Origin: Gemmatimonadota bacterium
GTDB lineage: Bacteria > Gemmatimonadota > Gemmatimonadetes > Gemmatimonadales > GWC2-71-9
Direction of reading: 5' to 3'
Assembly (NCBI GenBank): GCA_003221005.1
Contig: QHTZ01000055.1
Coordinates: forward strand, 33,896 to 49,844
DNA length: 15,949 nucleotides
Part shown: positions 1 through 9,169 of the stretch, piece by piece
Numbering within the stretch: position 1 is the first letter of the stretch
Layout: the number at the start of each line of letters is the position of its first letter
The notes under the pieces: model-generated
Database searches by the model: none
What the model was told of the DNA's origin: nothing
What the model saw: the letters and a program-made list of their open reading frames with translations, nothing else
Program-made: the position numbers and the translations under genes

Positions 1-793
1 CGCGCCCGCGGGCGAGCCCGCCCTCGGGCCGGTGGCATTCATGCATCGCCCGTCGGCCGAGAACGATCCCTTCGCGCCGATTTCGCATCACTGGCAGGAC
101 GCCACCCACATAACGTTCGGCGTCGTGACCGCCGGACTATTCACCCGGTCGGTGAAGCTCGAGGGGTCCTGGTTCAACGGTCGTGAACCGGACCAAAATC
201 GCTCCAGGCTAGAATACCGTAACCCCGATTCTTATAGCGCGCGCGTCACCGTCAACCCGGGGTCGCGCTGGAGCGTGTCGGCATGGTACGCCCACATCAA
301 CCGGCCGGAGGGGGGATTCCTCCCCAACATCCGCAAGTATGGAGTGTCCGTACTCACCACGCAGTCGTGGCGCAAGAGCGGGCACTGGGCGAGCGCGCTG
401 ATTTGGGGCGCGAACGCCCCGATCATTTACGAGACGGGGTCGAGCAGTTTCTTGCTGGAATCCAACCTCGATCTTGACGGAGTGAACGCCATCTTCGCTC
501 GTGCCGAGTACGTCAAGAAGCAGGCCCACGATATCATCCCCTTGTTCCTCGGCGTGCCGCCTCGGACCCTGTACGCTCTCTCGGTACTGGCGGTCGGCTA
601 CCATCGGGTGATCCTGACCCCGGGCCGGTTGAACGTGGGCCTCGGCTTCCGCGGCGCTGTAAACTTCGTGCCGGCGAGCCTCGAGAGCTTCTACGATTCG
701 CAAACCCCGGTGGGGGGCGCAATCTACCTGACCCTGCGACCTGGCAGCGTACCTGCGGGGGGCATGATGGACATGCCGGGGATGTCGCATTAG
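1..793 (+). CDS. Conserved hypothetical protein, probable outer-membrane beta-barrel (5' partial), with Met/His-rich C-terminal tail
   Basis: The frame is open from the window edge (APAGEPALGPVAFMHRPSA...HHWQDATHITFGVVTAG), so the true start is upstream. Alternating amphipathic beta-strand pattern; ends GGMMDMPGMSH, TAG at 791-793. Confidence 0.7.
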   Translation, partial: APAGEPALGPVAFMHRPSAENDPFAPISHHWQDATHITFGVVTAGLFTRSVKLEGSWFNGREPDQNRSRLEYRNPDSYSARVTVNPGSRWSVSAWYAHINRPEGGFLPNIRKYGVSVLTTQSWRKSGHWASALIWGANAPIIYETGSSSFLLESNLDLDGVNAIFARAEYVKKQAHDIIPLFLGVPPRTLYALSVLAVGYHRVILTPGRLNVGLGFRGAVNFVPASLESFYDSQTPVGGAIYLTLRPGSVPAGGMMDMPGMSH

Positions 794-880: not shown

Positions 881-903
881 TCGCGACCCTATTCGCAACC
901 GTT
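881..903. repeat. Degenerate tandem arm-like repeat TCGCGACCCTATTCGCAACCGTT
   Basis: 17/23 match to TCGCAACTGAAATCGCAACTGTT (1042-1064 and 4871-4893), with the same 12-bp period; lies on the opposite side of the tRNA fragment at 913-958. Confidence 0.5.
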
Positions 904-912
904 TTTCTACGG

Positions 913-958
913 CGATGCGCCAGGCGGGATTCGAACCCACGACCTTCGGCTCCGGAGG
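913..958 (-). repeat. 3' half of tRNA-Arg(CCG), att-like direct repeat
   Basis: 44/46 identical to 8025-8070. Homology ends just past the anticodon loop (CTCCGGAGG). The two differences are a compensatory T-stem pair. Confidence 0.9.
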
Positions 959-1064
959 GCGAGTTGGTCGGCGGTACGCAACGCCAGCCAACGTCGTATC
1001 AGCAGGTTAGCGCCAGCCAGCGCCGGTGGGCAACGCCCCCGTCGCAACTGAAATCGCAACTGTT
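941..1064. mobile_element. att-like end module Y, copy 1: tRNA core, IHF-like site (997-1009), tandem TCGCAACTG repeats (1040-1064)
   Basis: Colinear with 4767-4893 (by hand: 29 mismatches over 124 bp plus one 3-bp indel). The terminal 25 bp CGTCGCAACTGAAATCGCAACTGTT are identical. TATCAGCAGGTTA fits the IHF consensus WATCARNNNNTTR. Confidence 0.75.
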
Positions 1065-1151
1065 CGCGGCGCCGCCGCGGGCGGCGACGTCGAGCGAAGA
1101 TTGCCAGCGGCGCGCGTGCATCGTCGCTACCATGAGTCACCGCATTGGTCG

Positions 1152-3382: not shown

Positions 3383-4648
3383 ATGCGTCCTGCGATTCTG
3401 CTTCTTTTTTCCGCATGCATTGGATGCGATCTCAACGAGACTCCACACGAGCCGACGTTCTTCTTCAGCGCGTACCCACGCGGCACGACGGTGGGGGCTG
3501 TTCTCACCCCGACGCCTCAGGTCCGGATCCTGGATTGGACGGGCTACCTGGACTCCAACGCGACCGACCTCATCACCATCAGCCTCTCTGGGAACCCCGG
3601 GGGAGGAACGCTTTCCGGCGCTACGACCGTGGCTGCGGCGAACGGTGTCGCGACCTTTCCGAACCTGAGCATTGACAAGCAAGGGGAGGGGTACGTGCTG
3701 ACCGCGGCACCAAGAGTATTGCCTGCCTCCAGATTCCCTGCCTTGGGCGGCGCCTTCAATGTGGCATGCGCGTGCTGGAGCAGTAAGGCGCCGATGCCGA
3801 CTGGGCGCCCCAGTCTGGGCGTTGGCGTAGCGAACGGCGTCCTTTACGCCATCGGAGGATACAGCCAAACCTCCCTGGCGACCGTCGAGGCCTATGACCC
3901 GGTGGCCAATACCTGGACGACCAAGGCACCGATGCCTACCTCGCGTTTTGCTTTGGCCGTCGGCGTCGTGAACGGCGTCGTCTACGCCATCGGTGGATTC
4001 AACTACAGCAGCGGTCTGATCCTACCGAGCGTCGCCTACGATCCGGTGGCGAACAGCTGGACGACCAAGGCGCCGATGCCCACCCCGCGCTCGGGTTTAG
4101 CAGTGGGCGTCGTGAACGGCGTTCTGTACGCCGTGGGAGGCGATAGTGGTGCTGCCGAAATACCCGTCGGGACGACAGAGGCTTACGACCCGTCGACGAA
4201 CAGTTGGACGACCAAGCCGTCGATGCCCACCCCGCGTTCCGGTTTGGCTGTTGGCGTGGTGAGCGGCGTCCTCTACGCCGTCGGCGGAACCGATGGAAAC
4301 TACTACCCCTCTGTATACGGCCCCCCCCTGACGACCGTCGAAGCCTATGACCCGGTGACAAACAGCTGGACGACCAAGGCGCCGATGCCGACCCCGCGTT
4401 ACGGTTTGGCGGTTGGCGTGGTGAGCGGCTTCCTCTACGCCGTCGGAGGCAGCGGCCCGACGGGGACCGTCGCGGTCTACGATCCGGCGGCGAATAGCTG
4501 GACGAGCAGGGGACCGATGCTGACGTCGCGGACCTCCCTGGGTGCCGGCGTTGTGAACGGCGTCCTGTACGCCGTCGGCGGATTACCCCTTTACAACGGC
4601 GCTGCCCTCGCGACCCTTGAGGCCTACGACCCGGCTCAGGACCGTTGA
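3383..4648 (+). CDS. Secreted/lipoprotein Kelch-repeat (six-bladed beta-propeller) protein with N-terminal Ig-like segment
   Basis: Signal-like N-terminus with a possible lipobox (MRPAILLLFSACIGC). The NGVATFPNLSIDK..GYVLTA segment is Ig-like. Six repeats of W..KAPMPT.R.GLAVGVVNGVLYAVGG...EAYDP. Confidence 0.9.
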   Translation: MRPAILLLFSACIGCDLNETPHEPTFFFSAYPRGTTVGAVLTPTPQVRILDWTGYLDSNATDLITISLSGNPGGGTLSGATTVAAANGVATFPNLSIDKQGEGYVLTAAPRVLPASRFPALGGAFNVACACWSSKAPMPTGRPSLGVGVANGVLYAIGGYSQTSLATVEAYDPVANTWTTKAPMPTSRFALAVGVVNGVVYAIGGFNYSSGLILPSVAYDPVANSWTTKAPMPTPRSGLAVGVVNGVLYAVGGDSGAAEIPVGTTEAYDPSTNSWTTKPSMPTPRSGLAVGVVSGVLYAVGGTDGNYYPSVYGPPLTTVEAYDPVTNSWTTKAPMPTPRYGLAVGVVSGFLYAVGGSGPTGTVAVYDPAANSWTSRGPMLTSRTSLGAGVVNGVLYAVGGLPLYNGAALATLEAYDPAQDR

Positions 4649-4766
4649 GGTCTGGCGGCCGGGCTCAGAGCAGCGGCAACTCGAGGCCGTCCTTATGATG
4701 CCTGCCGGCTGGCCTCGATGATGGTTTCCGAGCAGCCGACCGTGCCCCAGCGCTCAAACTTACAGG

Positions 4767-4893
4767 GACCTTCGGCTTCTCCGGAGGGCGAGTGAACCGG
4801 CGTCGGGCAGCGCGCGCTAACGCCTTCTCAAGGACTTAGCGTCGGCCAGCGCCCGCAAGCAACGTCTGCGTCGCAACTGAAATCGCAACTGTT
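4767..4893. mobile_element. att-like end module Y, copy 2 (degenerate tRNA-Arg core, IHF-like site 4826-4838, tandem repeats 4869-4893)
   Basis: GACCTTCGGC(TTC)TCCGGAGGGCGAGT...TCTCAAGGACTTA...CGTCGCAACTGAAATCGCAACTGTT, homologous to 941-1064. Confidence 0.75.
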
Positions 4894-4914
4894 TTAACAG
4901 CGGCTGCCGGCTAA

Positions 4915-5490
4915 TCACCGCCAGACCGACGCCTTCTTGGCCCATGTGCTGTCCTGATACCGCTGGGTGAAGGCGCGCGCGGTGTCCTTCAGCGACGCCC
5001 CGTCACCCGTCGCTTTGTAGGGCGCGACCCCCGCCCAGTAGAGTGCCTCCGCTGCCGCATCGGTATGCGGTAGCCGCTCCACAATCTCTCGGAAGCGCCG
5101 CTCTGCGTCGGCCCACCGCTCCTGCTTGAAGGCCATGTGCGCCAGGCCGAGCATCAGTTGCGCGAGGAAGTCGTCCGCGGGAAGAAATCCCTCCACGCGG
5201 TGGCGCTCGACGCCGTCGGCATCCAGCTCGAGAATCGTCGGGGTCCATGGCGCGCTGTAGCGCTCGCCGTAGCGCTTGAAGTCCCCCGGGTTTTCTTTCA
5301 CGTGCACCCGGGCAGGCAGGAAATGCTGGTTCACGAAGCGCACCACGCGTTCATCCGGCCACACCTCGGCATCCAGCCGAGCACAGCCGCTTCACATCGG
5401 AGCGGCGCTGAAGTCGAGGAGTACTGGTTTCTGCTGGGCCTTCGCGTCATTCAGCACCTGGTCAACGTCACGGCGAAATTGGATTGGCAT
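4915..5490 (-). CDS. Thioredoxin-fold plus TPR-like protein, probable selenoprotein (U33-S-G-C), 191 aa
   Basis: Extending ORF 4915..5364 upstream in frame gives MPIQFRRDVDQVLNDAKAQQKPVLLDFSAAPM-TGA-SGCARLDAEVWPDERV...WTPTILELDADG. The TGA (5392-5394) sits at the first Cys position of the Trx CxxC, and the cis-Pro motif WTPT is present. The C-terminal half is TPR-like (AEALYWAG). Confidence 0.85.
5356..5389 (-). promoter_or_regulatory. Bacterial SECIS-like hairpin
   Basis: Directly 3' of the UGA: CGGCUGUG-CUCGGC-UGGAU-GCCGAG-GUGUGGCCG. Perfect 6-bp upper stem, G-containing 5-nt loop starting 16 nt after the UGA, and a GC/GU lower stem. Confidence 0.75.
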
Positions 5491-5640
5491 CGCATGCTCG
5501 CGGGCGGATGTGACTTCGCTCCAAGATAGCCAAGCTCACAGATCTCCGGCACCGGCCTCCAAAGACGGCGGGTCGATGCGGGCCCGCCGTTCTTGTGCTC
5601 ACGCAGGGCCGTTGGGGACCACCAAATACCTCCACGTCCA

Positions 5641-5669
5641 TCACGGACCGGCAAACGGTATGGCAAGCA
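5641..5669. repeat. Module X, copy 2
   Basis: TCACGGACCGGCAAACGGTATGGCAAGCA versus 1152-1179 TCACGGACCGGCAAACAAGTGGCAAACA. Confidence 0.7.
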
Positions 5670-5974
5670 GGTTCCGCATCCGTTGGTCAGCTTTCAGGTC
5701 TCGCCTCCGGAGCAGGGGGATGAACCCGATTCCGATTCCCTCGATCTGGTGCGACCCCGAAGGCTTCCCCGAGAGCACCGCGGATTCCGTCGGCCCCACT
5801 GCCGCAACGTATAGCTGAGGATTGGGCCTCGCAGCGCGTGCGCCGCGCTATGAATCCGCCGGTGCAATGGACACGTCGTGCGGGCCCGCGCCGATGTCGG
5901 GTAAGTCAGTCGGAGCTTGGTTTGGGACGGGTCTTGGTGGGGCGGGTGCGGACTGCGCCAGTGCAACCGCGATC

Positions 5975-7788: not shown

Positions 7789-8027
7789 CCGCCGACACAC
7801 CCGCTCGCAGCGCGATCATGGCGAGGTGCCGATTGCTGCACAGTTGTCAGCGCCAGCTCGATAACTTGCGGAGTCATCGGCCTTGGTTGCCGGGTGGGCT
7901 TGCTGAGGAAGAGCGAGGAACTCGATACATCGCTGCACCCGCGGGGATTCGACCGCTGGGAGAGTCAAGGTCCCGCCGGGACCTTCGGCCTCGTTGGCCG
8001 AAACGTGAAACCGCGTCTGTAAGTCGA

Positions 8028-8101
8028 TGCGCCAGACGGGATTCGAACCCATGACCTTCGGCTCCGGAGGCCGACGCTCTATCCAGCTGAGCTACTGGCG
8101 C
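8028..8101 (-). tRNA. tRNA-Arg(CCG)
   Basis: GCGCCAGTAGCTCAGCTGGATAGAGCG-TCGGC-CTCCGGA-GCCGA-AGGTCATGGGTTCGAATCCCGTCTGGCGCA; full cloverleaf, CCA not encoded. Confidence 0.97.
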
Positions 8102-8197
8102 GTGTTGTGCCGCAACACCTAAGCCGACTGCGGGCGGCGGCGGGCCAGACCGATGGTTGCCGTAACGGCCTCATTGATGCTCCCGCACCGTGAGCTT

Positions 8198-8239
8198 GGC
8201 TCCGGAGGCCGACGCTCCATCCAGCTGAGCCACTGACGC
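8198..8239 (-). repeat. 5' half of tRNA-Arg(CCG), degenerate duplicate
   Basis: 39/42 identical to 8060-8101; ends just past the anticodon loop. Confidence 0.88.
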
Positions 8240-8317
8240 CCACTCGGTCGGACGTCGGAAGGAAAAGCACGGACGGTGTTGGCGTCCGGCAATCCGACCG
8301 TCCGACAGCAGGACTGT

Positions 8318-8394
<77 letters not shown>

Positions 8395-8426
8395 AAATGG
8401 TCCGACCGTCCGACAGTCCGACCGAG

Positions 8427-8500
8427 TGCGCCCAGAGGGAGTCGAACCCCCAGCCTTTTGGTCCGTAGCCAAACGCTCTATCCAGTTGAGCTATGGGCGC
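8427..8500 (-). tRNA. tRNA-Arg(ACG)
   Basis: GCGCCCATAGCTCAACTGGATAGAGCG-TTTGG-CTACGGA-CCAAA-AGGCTGGGGGTTCGACTCCCTCTGGGCGCA. Confidence 0.97.
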
Positions 8501-8508
8501 GCGCGGAG

Positions 8509-8582
<74 letters not shown>

Positions 8583-8588
8583 AAAAGA

Positions 8589-8717
8589 CTAGACGGGTAG
8601 ACGGCGAGACGGGTAGACGGGTAGCGGTTCGTAGTGATCAAAGGGGAGAGAACCACTCTCGCTTCTCCGCCCCACTCGCCGCTGTCCGTCTACCCGTCTG
8701 TCCGTCTACCCGTCTAG
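8589..8717. repeat. Inverted repeat built from 8-mer tandem units (AGACGGGT), CTAG at both ends
   Basis: 8589-8627 and 8679-8717 form a 39-bp inverted repeat with 4 mismatches. Confidence 0.85.
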
Positions 8718-8720
8718 CAG

Positions 8721-8794
8721 TAGCGGGGGTGGGATTTGAACCCACGACCTCCGGGTTATGAGCCCGGCGAGCTACCAGACTGCTCCACCCCGCG
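8721..8794 (-). tRNA. tRNA-fMet(CAT), initiator
   Basis: CGCGGGGTGGAGCAGTCTGGTAGCTCG-CCGGG-CTCATAA-CCCGG...CCCCCGCTA; unpaired C1 and three G-C pairs closing the anticodon stem. Confidence 0.96.
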
Positions 8795-8801
8795 TCGCCA
8801 T

Positions 8802-8890
8802 GGTCGGACCGTCGGACTGCTGGACGGTCGGACCGTACTTGGTGCTGCTCACCTCACTGTCTGACGGTCCGACTGTCCGACCGTCCGACG
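8802..8890. repeat. Inverted repeat of 8-mer tandem units (GTCGGACN / GTCCGACN)
   Basis: GGTCGGACCGTCGGACTGCTGGACGGTCGGACC ... GTCTGACGGTCCGACTGTCCGACCGTCCGAC. The same unit occurs at 8245-8306 and 8400-8424. Confidence 0.8.
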
Positions 8891-8895
8891 GGCAG

Positions 8896-8968
8896 AGCGG
8901 GAAACGGGACTCGAACCCGCGACCCCAACCTTGGCAAGGTTGTGCTCTACCAACTGAGCTATTCCCGC
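8896..8968 (-). tRNA. tRNA-Gly(GCC)
   Basis: GCGGGAATAGCTCAGTTGGTAGAGCA-CAACC-TTGCCAA-GGTTG-GGGTCGCGGGTTCGAGTCCCGTTTCCCGCT. Confidence 0.97.
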
Positions 8969-8973
8969 AAAGA

Positions 8974-9092
8974 CTAGACGTCGAGACGGGTAGACGGGTA
9001 GGAGGTATCCGCGTCCGTCAGGCTCGCCAGTCTTGCACCCCTGCCAACTGTAGCCAAACAACTCCTCGCCGTCTACCCGTCTACCCGCCTAG
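8974..9092. repeat. Second CTAG-bounded AGACGGGT tandem inverted repeat
   Basis: CTAGACGTCGAGACGGGTAGACGGGTAG ... CCGTCTACCCGTCTACCCGCCTAG. Confidence 0.8.
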
Positions 9093-9093
9093 C

Positions 9094-9169
9094 TGGTGGA
9101 GGCGAGGGGGATCGAACCCCTGACCTCGTGAATGCCATTCACGCGCTCTCCCAACTGAGCTACGCCCCC
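9094..9169 (-). tRNA. tRNA-Ala(GGC)
   Basis: GGGGGCGTAGCTCAGTTGGGAGAGCG-CGTGA-ATGGCAT-TCACG...CGCCTCCACCA; G3.U70 pair, CCA encoded. Confidence 0.97.

Follow-up and report, generated by a model that had tools for sequence, protein, structure and literature searches.

The reverse strand of the window (the whole stretch of Gemmatimonadota DNA that was analysed, 15,949 nucleotides) carries at 5490-4915 a gene whose product is very probably a 191-residue cytoplasmic protein with a thioredoxin domain ahead of a TPR domain (Trx-TPR), made by recoding the UGA at codon 33 to selenocysteine (Sec). On this reading it is the genome's second copy of the gene, lodged on a degenerate island. The sequence evidence makes it almost certain that the gene is real and that its active-site UGA is read as Sec. 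What computation establishes is the reading frame, the fold, the pairing of Sec with Cys in homologues, the constraint at the RNA level and a genome equipped with the Sec machinery. The gene is an intact, mis-annotated selenoprotein gene, a further member or sub-family of the known UxxC thioredoxin-fold kind.

We propose the following mechanism. SelB carrying Sec-tRNA(Sec) would bind a 17-nt hairpin (5381-5365) that lies 10 nt behind the UGA, in frame. The resulting protein would have a thioredoxin fold of the DsbD-gamma/DsbH type with the motif Sec33-Ser-Gly-Cys36, and then a short TPR domain of the YbgF type. By analogy with thioredoxin-fold UxxC/CxxC proteins, Sec33 could attack a disulfide or an oxidised thiol of a client and form a selenosulfide with Cys36; that the TPR tail picks the client is speculation. 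This copy would sit at the end of a degenerate island, bordered by repeats derived from tRNA-Arg and lacking an integrase.

Reading frame and annotation

The gene and the two codons that decide how it is annotated are as follows.

4915..5490, reverse strand: coding sequence of the predicted Trx-TPR selenoprotein, from the ATG at 5490 through 191 codons to the TGA stop at 4917-4915
5392..5394, reverse strand: predicted selenocysteine codon UGA33, first residue of the redox motif U33-S-G-C36
5362..5364, reverse strand: GTG (Val43), the start taken by gene callers, which gives a 149-aa product

Read-through translation from the ATG at 5490 gives a frame of 191 residues whose sole internal TGA is codon 33 (5394-5392). 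Its surroundings read ...KPVLLDFSAAPM-U-SGC..., also written ...VLLDFSAAPM-U-SGC-ARLDAEVWPD..., and the codon of Cys36 is 5385-5383 on the same strand. The earlier note on this DNA had claimed that the ORF track cuts the gene at 5364, that one in-frame TGA occupies the site of the first catalytic Cys with 32 codons upstream, and that a UxxC thioredoxin-fold/TPR selenoprotein was hidden there under a wrong annotation. The plain ORF list does start at the GTG (4915..5364, reverse strand, 149 aa), the read-through confirms the TGA and its position, and the selenoprotein reading is supported by the conservation of the TGA, the Sec/Cys pairing, selection, the constraint on the hairpin and selABCD, all presented below. 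Relatives at the genome loci share the same start Met. The window copy is intact and keeps its start codon, the TGA, the hairpin, the stop and every invariant residue. Since the gene's own terminator is also a TGA, the reading of UGA depends on context, with no change in the genetic code.

Public records are cut off at this point too. Among 5.8 billion proteins, a search returned 3,161 relatives at E <= 1e-3, and the best 120 of these are nearly all 149-aa calls; they cover 77-78% of the query and so share the truncation. The 149-aa database calls go under the names "thioredoxin," "TolA-binding protein" (often) and "hypothetical."

Conservation and selection at the UGA

A DNA search of species-representative genomes found 60 related loci, mostly in Gemmatimonadota, with one in Eisenbacteria and three in Acidobacteriota. 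Codon 33 is TGA in 59 of them and CGA in one, and the 32 upstream codons are in frame in all 60. Metagenome loci have TGA in 80 out of 80 cases (the best 80 of 543 confirmed loci). When 301 genomes of the phylum were sampled, the gene was present in 15, from 11 of 127 genera; this count takes in the unpublished genomes G057 and G157 and becomes 13 out of 299 without both. TGA stands in 15 of the 16 places found in this sample, and the remaining place ends short of codon 33. Among 301 genomes of Acidobacteriota, 30 have a match at E <= 1e-15 (including the unpublished G352 and G455, whose loci were left out of the analysis). They account for 34 places, 23 of which have one TGA, and reading by eye places TGA at the motif in 17 Acidobacteriota loci.

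A search without a profile, run exhaustively over 1.84 billion cluster representatives to find distant homologues, gave 3,930 relatives, and 46 rows of 175-260 aa out of 149 newly listed rows were aligned. The residue facing the UGA in these full-length distant representatives is Cys in 36, Ser in 4 and Asn in 1, with a gap or no character in 6; these add up to 47, one more than the rows aligned, since the query (P0001, read with C at the site) is counted as well. The distant homologues are continuous proteins with CxxC, and P0104 also has Cys at the site. Replacement of a catalytic Cys site by UGA, with Cys-bearing homologues, is the standard signature of a selenoprotein. Conserved TGA or Cys in homologues was the check named beforehand for this reading, and we found both, TGA in genome and metagenome loci and Cys in 36 of the 46 distant rows. 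The outcome named as fatal to it, a TGA unique to this sequence with Cys in all close homologues and a genome without selABCD, is contradicted by the 59 TGA codons in 60 loci and by the selABCD genes described below.

Selection was compared on the two sides of the UGA by pairwise Nei-Gojobori estimates over 59 sequences (the window and the loci, minus the broken L081 and the partial L082). Codons 2-32 have pS 0.63, pN 0.19 and dN/dS 0.16, and codons 44-190 have pS 0.62, pN 0.21 and dN/dS 0.18. The near-equal ratios upstream and downstream indicate that the stretch before the UGA is translated in the same frame.

A predicted SECIS hairpin under constraint

The candidate recoding signal is a single short hairpin.

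5365..5381, reverse strand: predicted SECIS hairpin of 17 nt, stem CUCGGC/GCCGAG (5381-5376 with 5370-5365), loop UGGAU (5375-5371)

It starts 10 nt 3' of the UGA, and its loop starts 16 nt after the UGA. In the bSECISearch model, as the earlier note gives it, the loop lies 16-37 nt past the UGA with a G among the first loop bases, and the window hairpin, with its loop UGGAU at 16 nt, agrees with the model so stated. The hairpin CUCGGC-UGGAU-GCCGAG had been proposed at exactly this position and with exactly this sequence, and we find that it is constrained at the RNA level. Synonymous change nearly vanishes over the hairpin codons 37-43 (ARLDAEV), where pS is 0.03 against 0.62. Normalised synonymous entropy averages 0.068 in these codons against 0.695 in 84 other conserved degenerate columns (Mann-Whitney p = 8e-6), and the lowest-entropy 7-codon window of the whole gene begins at codon 37. 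Across 61 sequences, CGG (Arg38), CTG, GCC and GAG are each used in 61, and GCT (Ala37) and GTG in 60; outside the hairpin, the same amino acids use 4-6 codons.

Across 157 loci (81 distinct 42-mers), little or nothing varies in five of the six stem pairs, and every loop reads UGGA-N. The stem changes are few: a single compensatory one among the 81 distinct sequences, from C-G to U-A, and in three sequences a C.A mismatch that affects the second pair. Covariation, one double change against three such mismatches, is therefore sparse because the stem hardly varies. A diverged subfamily with the motif PGULGC..MDAVTYP (six loci and L087) cannot form the CUCGGC/GCCGAG hairpin. It has another, GGAUGC-CGUGAC-GUAUCC, about 7 nt further on, with one compensatory change (A-U to G-C) and two one-sided changes.

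The folding energy of the 66-nt stretch is unexceptional for its G+C-rich composition (z = -0.84; 43 of 200 shuffles fold as well). Rfam gave no SECIS or other family on the hairpin, neither at the gathering threshold nor at E <= 10, apart from one row that is a chance miRNA match (E 2.5). An outer stem GGCU/GGCC seen in the predicted fold was dropped, because the Gly35 codon is GGC in 52 of 61 sequences without a matching change opposite. The nearest comparison is the minimal SECIS of Escherichia coli fdhF, which we take to be a small in-frame hairpin of ~17 nt, ~11 nt 3' of the UGA, with a G in its loop. The window hairpin resembles it in being an in-frame hairpin of ~17 nt shortly 3' of the UGA with a G in the loop. 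It differs in its sequence, in its UGGA-N loop and in having no predicted bulged U.

Selenocysteine machinery of the host

The genome (2.79 Mb in 141 contigs, 94% complete) has what Sec insertion needs. A check for selA, selB, selC and selD had been proposed, and all four are present over curated cut-offs: selC, the tRNA-Sec, with 82.5 bits and the anticodon TCA, selB with 311 bits against a cut-off of 242, selA with 533 bits and selD with 377 bits. The selD gene itself has one in-frame TGA. Within the phylum sample, selA exceeds its cut-off in 238 of 301 genomes and is present in all 15 holders of the Trx-TPR gene; it is also present in all three holders tested outside the phylum.

Fold, domains and location

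The protein divides into two domains.

5155..5490, reverse strand: thioredoxin-fold domain at the N-terminus, about residues 1-112, with the conserved loop W82-T83-P84
4918..5154, reverse strand: TPR-like domain at the C-terminus, about residues 113-191, made of helices (five in the model)

Pfam assigns the first domain over its cut-offs to PF13098 Thioredoxin_2 (53.6 bits, cut-off 27), PF13899 Thioredoxin_7 and PF03190 Thioredox_DsbH; on the tail there are weak TPR and YfiO matches. An AlphaFold model from a 39-row alignment has pLDDT 92.5 and pTM 0.90, with a dip in pLDDT to 63 around the active site (residues 31-40). In the model, the redox motif lies between the strand 23-28 and the helix 36-43, as in thioredoxin, and the invariant W82-T83-P84 precedes the strand 85-89, a position that we take, from knowledge of the fold, to be the cis-proline loop site of thioredoxins. 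In the thioredoxin fold, strand one, helix one and the first redox residue all come from codons 2-32 and the UGA, that is, from the part of the model that the 149-aa calls omit.

The nearest solved structures in a fold search are DsbD-gamma and DsbH (2fwg, 1uc7, 2ju5), which align with residues 1-120 at TM 0.71-0.79 on the target, rmsd 2.1-2.8 A and 16-30% identity. A profile search also matches the N-terminal domain to DsbD-gamma chains, and it matches the C-terminal 75 residues to YbgF (2xev, E 3e-10) and CpoB (6g5s, E 5e-8). Read by eye, the N-terminus MPIQFRRDVDQVLNDAK... has no hydrophobic signal, and hence the protein should be cytoplasmic. Its modelled fold suggests the role of a redox partner.

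No neighbour gene is conserved across the family: DUF5996 is found upstream in 12 loci and a Y-family polymerase downstream in 7, some loci have an amino-acid permease downstream, and the Kelch and FAD/BBE genes that are neighbours in the window adjoin the gene in at most 2 of 60 loci. Because the neighbours are not conserved, any client and pathway are guesses.

Relation to known families

The closest published relatives appear to be the selenoproteins of the PF13098/cd02953 class, where cd02953 ("Trx-like 2") is, we assume, the DsbD-gamma model. The Trx-TPR protein resembles them in reaching the PF13098 cut-off, in having UxxC with one Sec and in its DsbD-gamma-like fold; it is unlike the class as described in having no signal peptide and in carrying a YbgF-type TPR domain. 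A 2026 review (PMC13188914) counts the UxxC "Thiol:disulfide interchange protein" class among the high-confidence predicted bacterial selenoproteins, and the GOS survey (PMC2398784) gives that class 22 Sec and 2,098 Cys sequences. By domain, motif and fold, our protein fits the description of this published thioredoxin-fold UxxC class, whose representative is WP_011366075.1.

The review makes no mention of TPR or Gemmatimonadota, and the survey none of TPR. A wider look at the literature (PMC13188914, PMC12013277, PMC13326102 and PMC2398784) found no Trx-TPR or Gemmatimonadota selenoprotein, and the family may be in table S2 of BSepDB. The protein reaches no curated NCBIfam selenoprotein model. 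TsoB (NF045694), VPGUxxT types 1 and 2 (NF041382 and NF041383) and the Trx7/PDZ set (NF041199) were considered and set aside as weak local matches to the thioredoxin part, all below their cut-offs (51.6 bits against 805, 36.5 against 275, 25.5 against 350 and 16.4 against 300, respectively).

Each of the structural relatives differs in some essential respect. DsbD gamma and DsbH are periplasmic and have CxxC, whereas here there is Sec, no export signal and an additional TPR domain. YbgF/CpoB, alike by profile over the C-terminal 75 residues, works with Tol-Pal in the periplasm and lacks a thioredoxin domain. YbbN/CnoX (3qou, 3qdn) shares the order of a thioredoxin domain followed by TPR helices and a cytoplasmic location, and appears at ranks 15-16 of the fold search over about 205 columns. 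It differs in its rmsd of 10-12 A and TMq of 0.42-0.43, its other thioredoxin subfamily and its longer TPR part (about 284 residues in the whole protein against 191), and it has no match in the profile search. Membership among the CnoX/YbbN chaperedoxins was therefore rejected, the domain order alone being alike.

A second copy on an island remnant

The features around the gene are as follows.

4765..5700, reverse strand: shared 936-nt stretch, 96% identical to L081, a locus of another Gemmatimonadales genome, with unrelated flanks
4741..4914, reverse strand: att-like junction that follows the stop codon immediately, with an "element end" of about 125 nt and then a decayed tRNA-Arg 3' half
890..1090, reverse strand: second copy of the junction, better kept, with a complete tRNA-Arg 3' half
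8028..8101, reverse strand: intact tRNA-Arg(CCG), the first in a cluster of seven tRNA genes (8028-9169)

The 936-nt stretch holds only the Trx-TPR gene, flanked by about 210 nt on its upstream side and about 150 nt on its downstream side, and the window and L081 have no match in the flanks beyond 4765-5700. The other copies are far less alike: the second copy in this genome, on contig C129, also has TGA and is 83% identical to the window copy, and it is 82.7% identical to L024, the other copy in the genome of L081. In a protein tree (built without L081 and L082, which are too short), the window copy is joined to L023 with support 97/91, and the C129 copy stands elsewhere. Horizontal spread, suggested earlier for this gene, is thus borne out by near-identity over 936 nt between unrelated flanks, and the sequence of the window copy bears signs that it was transferred laterally not long ago, on what is now the remnant of a tRNA-Arg island.

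The tRNA remnant in the first junction (4741-4914) has an anticodon arm with a 3-nt insertion, and its decayed 3' half lies near 4741-4791. The element end of the second is 75% identical to 4779-4893, and its positions 897-962 are 86% identical to 8009-8074, with the tRNA 3' half repeat at 916-962; the first junction aligns with window 1090-890, with L081 3572-3780 and with the tRNA-Arg gene. Two marks of tRNA-targeted islands are a tRNA 3' half repeated directly where the inserted DNA ends on its far side, and the occurrence of the same DNA in another genome in a different context. Both are found here, and tRNA-Arg(CCG) at 8028..8101 is the probable integration target. Among the 60 related loci, the junction occurs only in L081, where it again comes after the 936-nt stretch and has pheA and ilvD behind it. 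There is no tyrosine integrase, either as a PF00589 match on contig C38 or among the long ORFs of the window. This layout fits two tandem island remnants at the tRNA-Arg, with the putative selenoprotein gene last in one of them. The proposal that the gene is a single cargo between att-like modules stands for its downstream border, which is att-like, and fails for the upstream one: there, the shared stretch adjoins a 43-residue fragment of a PLP-enzyme gene (identified by BLASTP to the full gene on contig C118; Pfam has no match on the 52-aa fragment), and an FAD/BBE oxidase gene sits between the Trx-TPR gene and the intact tRNA-Arg.

Such a setting leaves some room for the view that the family consists of true selenoproteins and that the window copy is a redundant recent import, silent or decaying. 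The C129 copy would make it redundant, it lies in an integrase-less remnant beside a gene fragment, and the gene is absent from both other genomes of the same genus that were searched. Its twin in L081 has CGA in place of the TGA and has lost 2 nt in the WTP codons; it is a pseudogene, and so island-borne copies can be dispensable. A simple scan upstream found no sigma-70-like promoter. That scan, however, covers one promoter type only, and the window copy is intact in every element of the gene listed above. We consider a silent or decaying copy unlikely and prefer an intact gene read through its UGA. A terminator scan gave nothing useful, and three RNA-library contigs (X15, X16 and X17, of which X15 and X17 come from one sample) cover 4906-5310, short of the UGA, in libraries of a kind that may contain DNA.

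Other readings of the UGA

Could the UGA be read as an ordinary amino acid, such as Trp, Cys or Arg, by near-cognate decoding? Two database proteins, P0036 and P0083, have W at the site, and two loci have CGA (Arg) at codon 33, one of them, L174, in an intact gene. Against this, the 80 metagenome loci nearest P0036 all have TGA and none has TGG, so that the W most likely comes from a gene-caller code in which TGA is Trp. Plain read-through would also leave unexplained a conserved hairpin under selection at the RNA level and a full Sec machinery, and Cys homologues at the site are what is expected of selenoproteins. We regard ordinary decoding as very improbable. That the TGA is a true stop, with a 149-aa product from the GTG at 5364 and 32 upstream codons that are untranslated or make a separate peptide, is the reading of all the public calls listed, and it has next to no chance of being right, as codons 2-32 evolve in frame under the same constraint as those downstream, the 149-aa product would lack the active site, with the first strand, helix and redox residue left upstream, and distant homologues run continuously through the position with CxxC.

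Wider significance

Decoding of UGA33 as Sec, the reading we retain, has consequences for annotation. Because the family is truncated in public records and has no curated NCBIfam model, the selenoproteomes of soil Gemmatimonadota and Acidobacteriota are undercounted. For selenoprotein specialists, nothing here is surprising in kind. Still, the family offers a natural set for working out the rules of bacterial SECIS elements, since its 17-nt hairpin is invariant, a sister subfamily has a hairpin of another type and UGA-to-CGA variants occur naturally, and the island-borne copy shows that a Sec gene with its own recoding signal can move between genomes that already have the Sec machinery.

A bolder interpretation is possible, although we hold it to be doubtful. 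The gene would be a self-sufficient cassette of ~0.9 kb, the last gene before the att junction of tRNA-Arg islands, moving among Sec-competent soil Gemmatimonadales. It would belong to an uncatalogued family of cytoplasmic Trx-TPR "seleno-chaperedoxins," with a SECIS frozen across three phyla and a 6-bp stem common to the SECIS of selD. If so, the common stem would point to a lineage-wide code of recognition by SelB. A scan of the genome for a TGA followed by the CUCGGC...GCCGAG stem found 10 places (the C129 copy, too close to its contig end, fell outside the scan), and the only ones that look coding are the Trx-TPR gene and selD.

Sec codon and hairpin among relatives and in selD

Two unrelated loci carry CGA (Arg) at the position of the Sec codon: L081 (3001-3571), from another Gemmatimonadales genome, and L174, from genome G481. 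Both retain the hairpin. Besides the CGA codon, L081 has lost 2 nt within its WTP codons, which shifts the reading frame. The gene of L174 is full length and intact.

A sister subfamily with the motif PGULGC..MDAVTYP (L087 and L186-L191), 30-35% identical, also contains Sec. Its hairpin (GGAUGC-CGUGAC-GUAUCC) is different and shifted, with compensatory changes. In the relatives with VYP after the motif, either of the two hairpins, which overlap, can form.

In the genome itself, selD (contig C46, near 15392, minus strand) encodes a selenoprotein as well, with the motif ...HGAG-U-ACKLG... Its hairpin lies 9 nt after the UGA and has the loop CCC and a 6-bp stem, CUCGGC/GCCGAG, identical to that of the hairpin in the window; over its two strands together, the genome has 48 occurrences of this stem.

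In the soil DNA run X1, the assembler contigs break at the hairpin (window 5354-5415) and form a pile of short contigs of 43-45 nt, with a summed depth of about 170 against about 7 alongside. Such a pile-up is as expected if an identical SECIS sequence were common to many species in the sample.

Neighboring genes and tRNA remnants

The features around the selenoprotein gene are listed below by window position.

Features of the window around the selenoprotein gene
2-793, plus strand: long ORF, 263 aa
1384-3096, plus strand: long ORF, 570 aa
3173-3213, plus strand: remnant, tRNA-Pro-like 3' end, 41 nt
3383-4648, plus strand: Kelch-repeat protein, 421 aa, six repeats of about 140 nt each
5692-5847, minus strand: fragment of a PLP-dependent enzyme (PALP family), 43 residues
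5975-7507, minus strand: FAD-binding/BBE-type oxidase, with the tRNA-Arg gene on one side and the selenoprotein gene on the other
8028-9169, minus strand: cluster of seven tRNA genes (Arg-CCG, Pro-CGG, Arg-ACG, Val-GAC, Met-CAT, Gly-GCC, Ala-GGC)
8166-8239: remnant, decayed tRNA-Arg copy, 64% identical

The PALP-family fragment is a gene remnant: it aligns, with 79% identity, to residues 196-238 of a 310-aa enzyme encoded on contig C118. It adjoins the sequence that the window has in common with L081, at its upstream border. A relative of the oxidase adjoins the selenoprotein gene at only two of the 60 loci (L082 and L070). The Kelch-repeat gene, convergent with the selenoprotein gene, lies inside the second island remnant, and neither long ORF matched Pfam at E <= 1e-5.

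The tRNA-Pro-like remnant is inverted relative to tRNA-Pro (8319-8394), with 83% complementarity. The spacers of the tRNA cluster are dense in 8-nt periodic repeats resembling GACGGGTA, which form long inverted repeats, e.g., 8589-8650 with 8656-8717.
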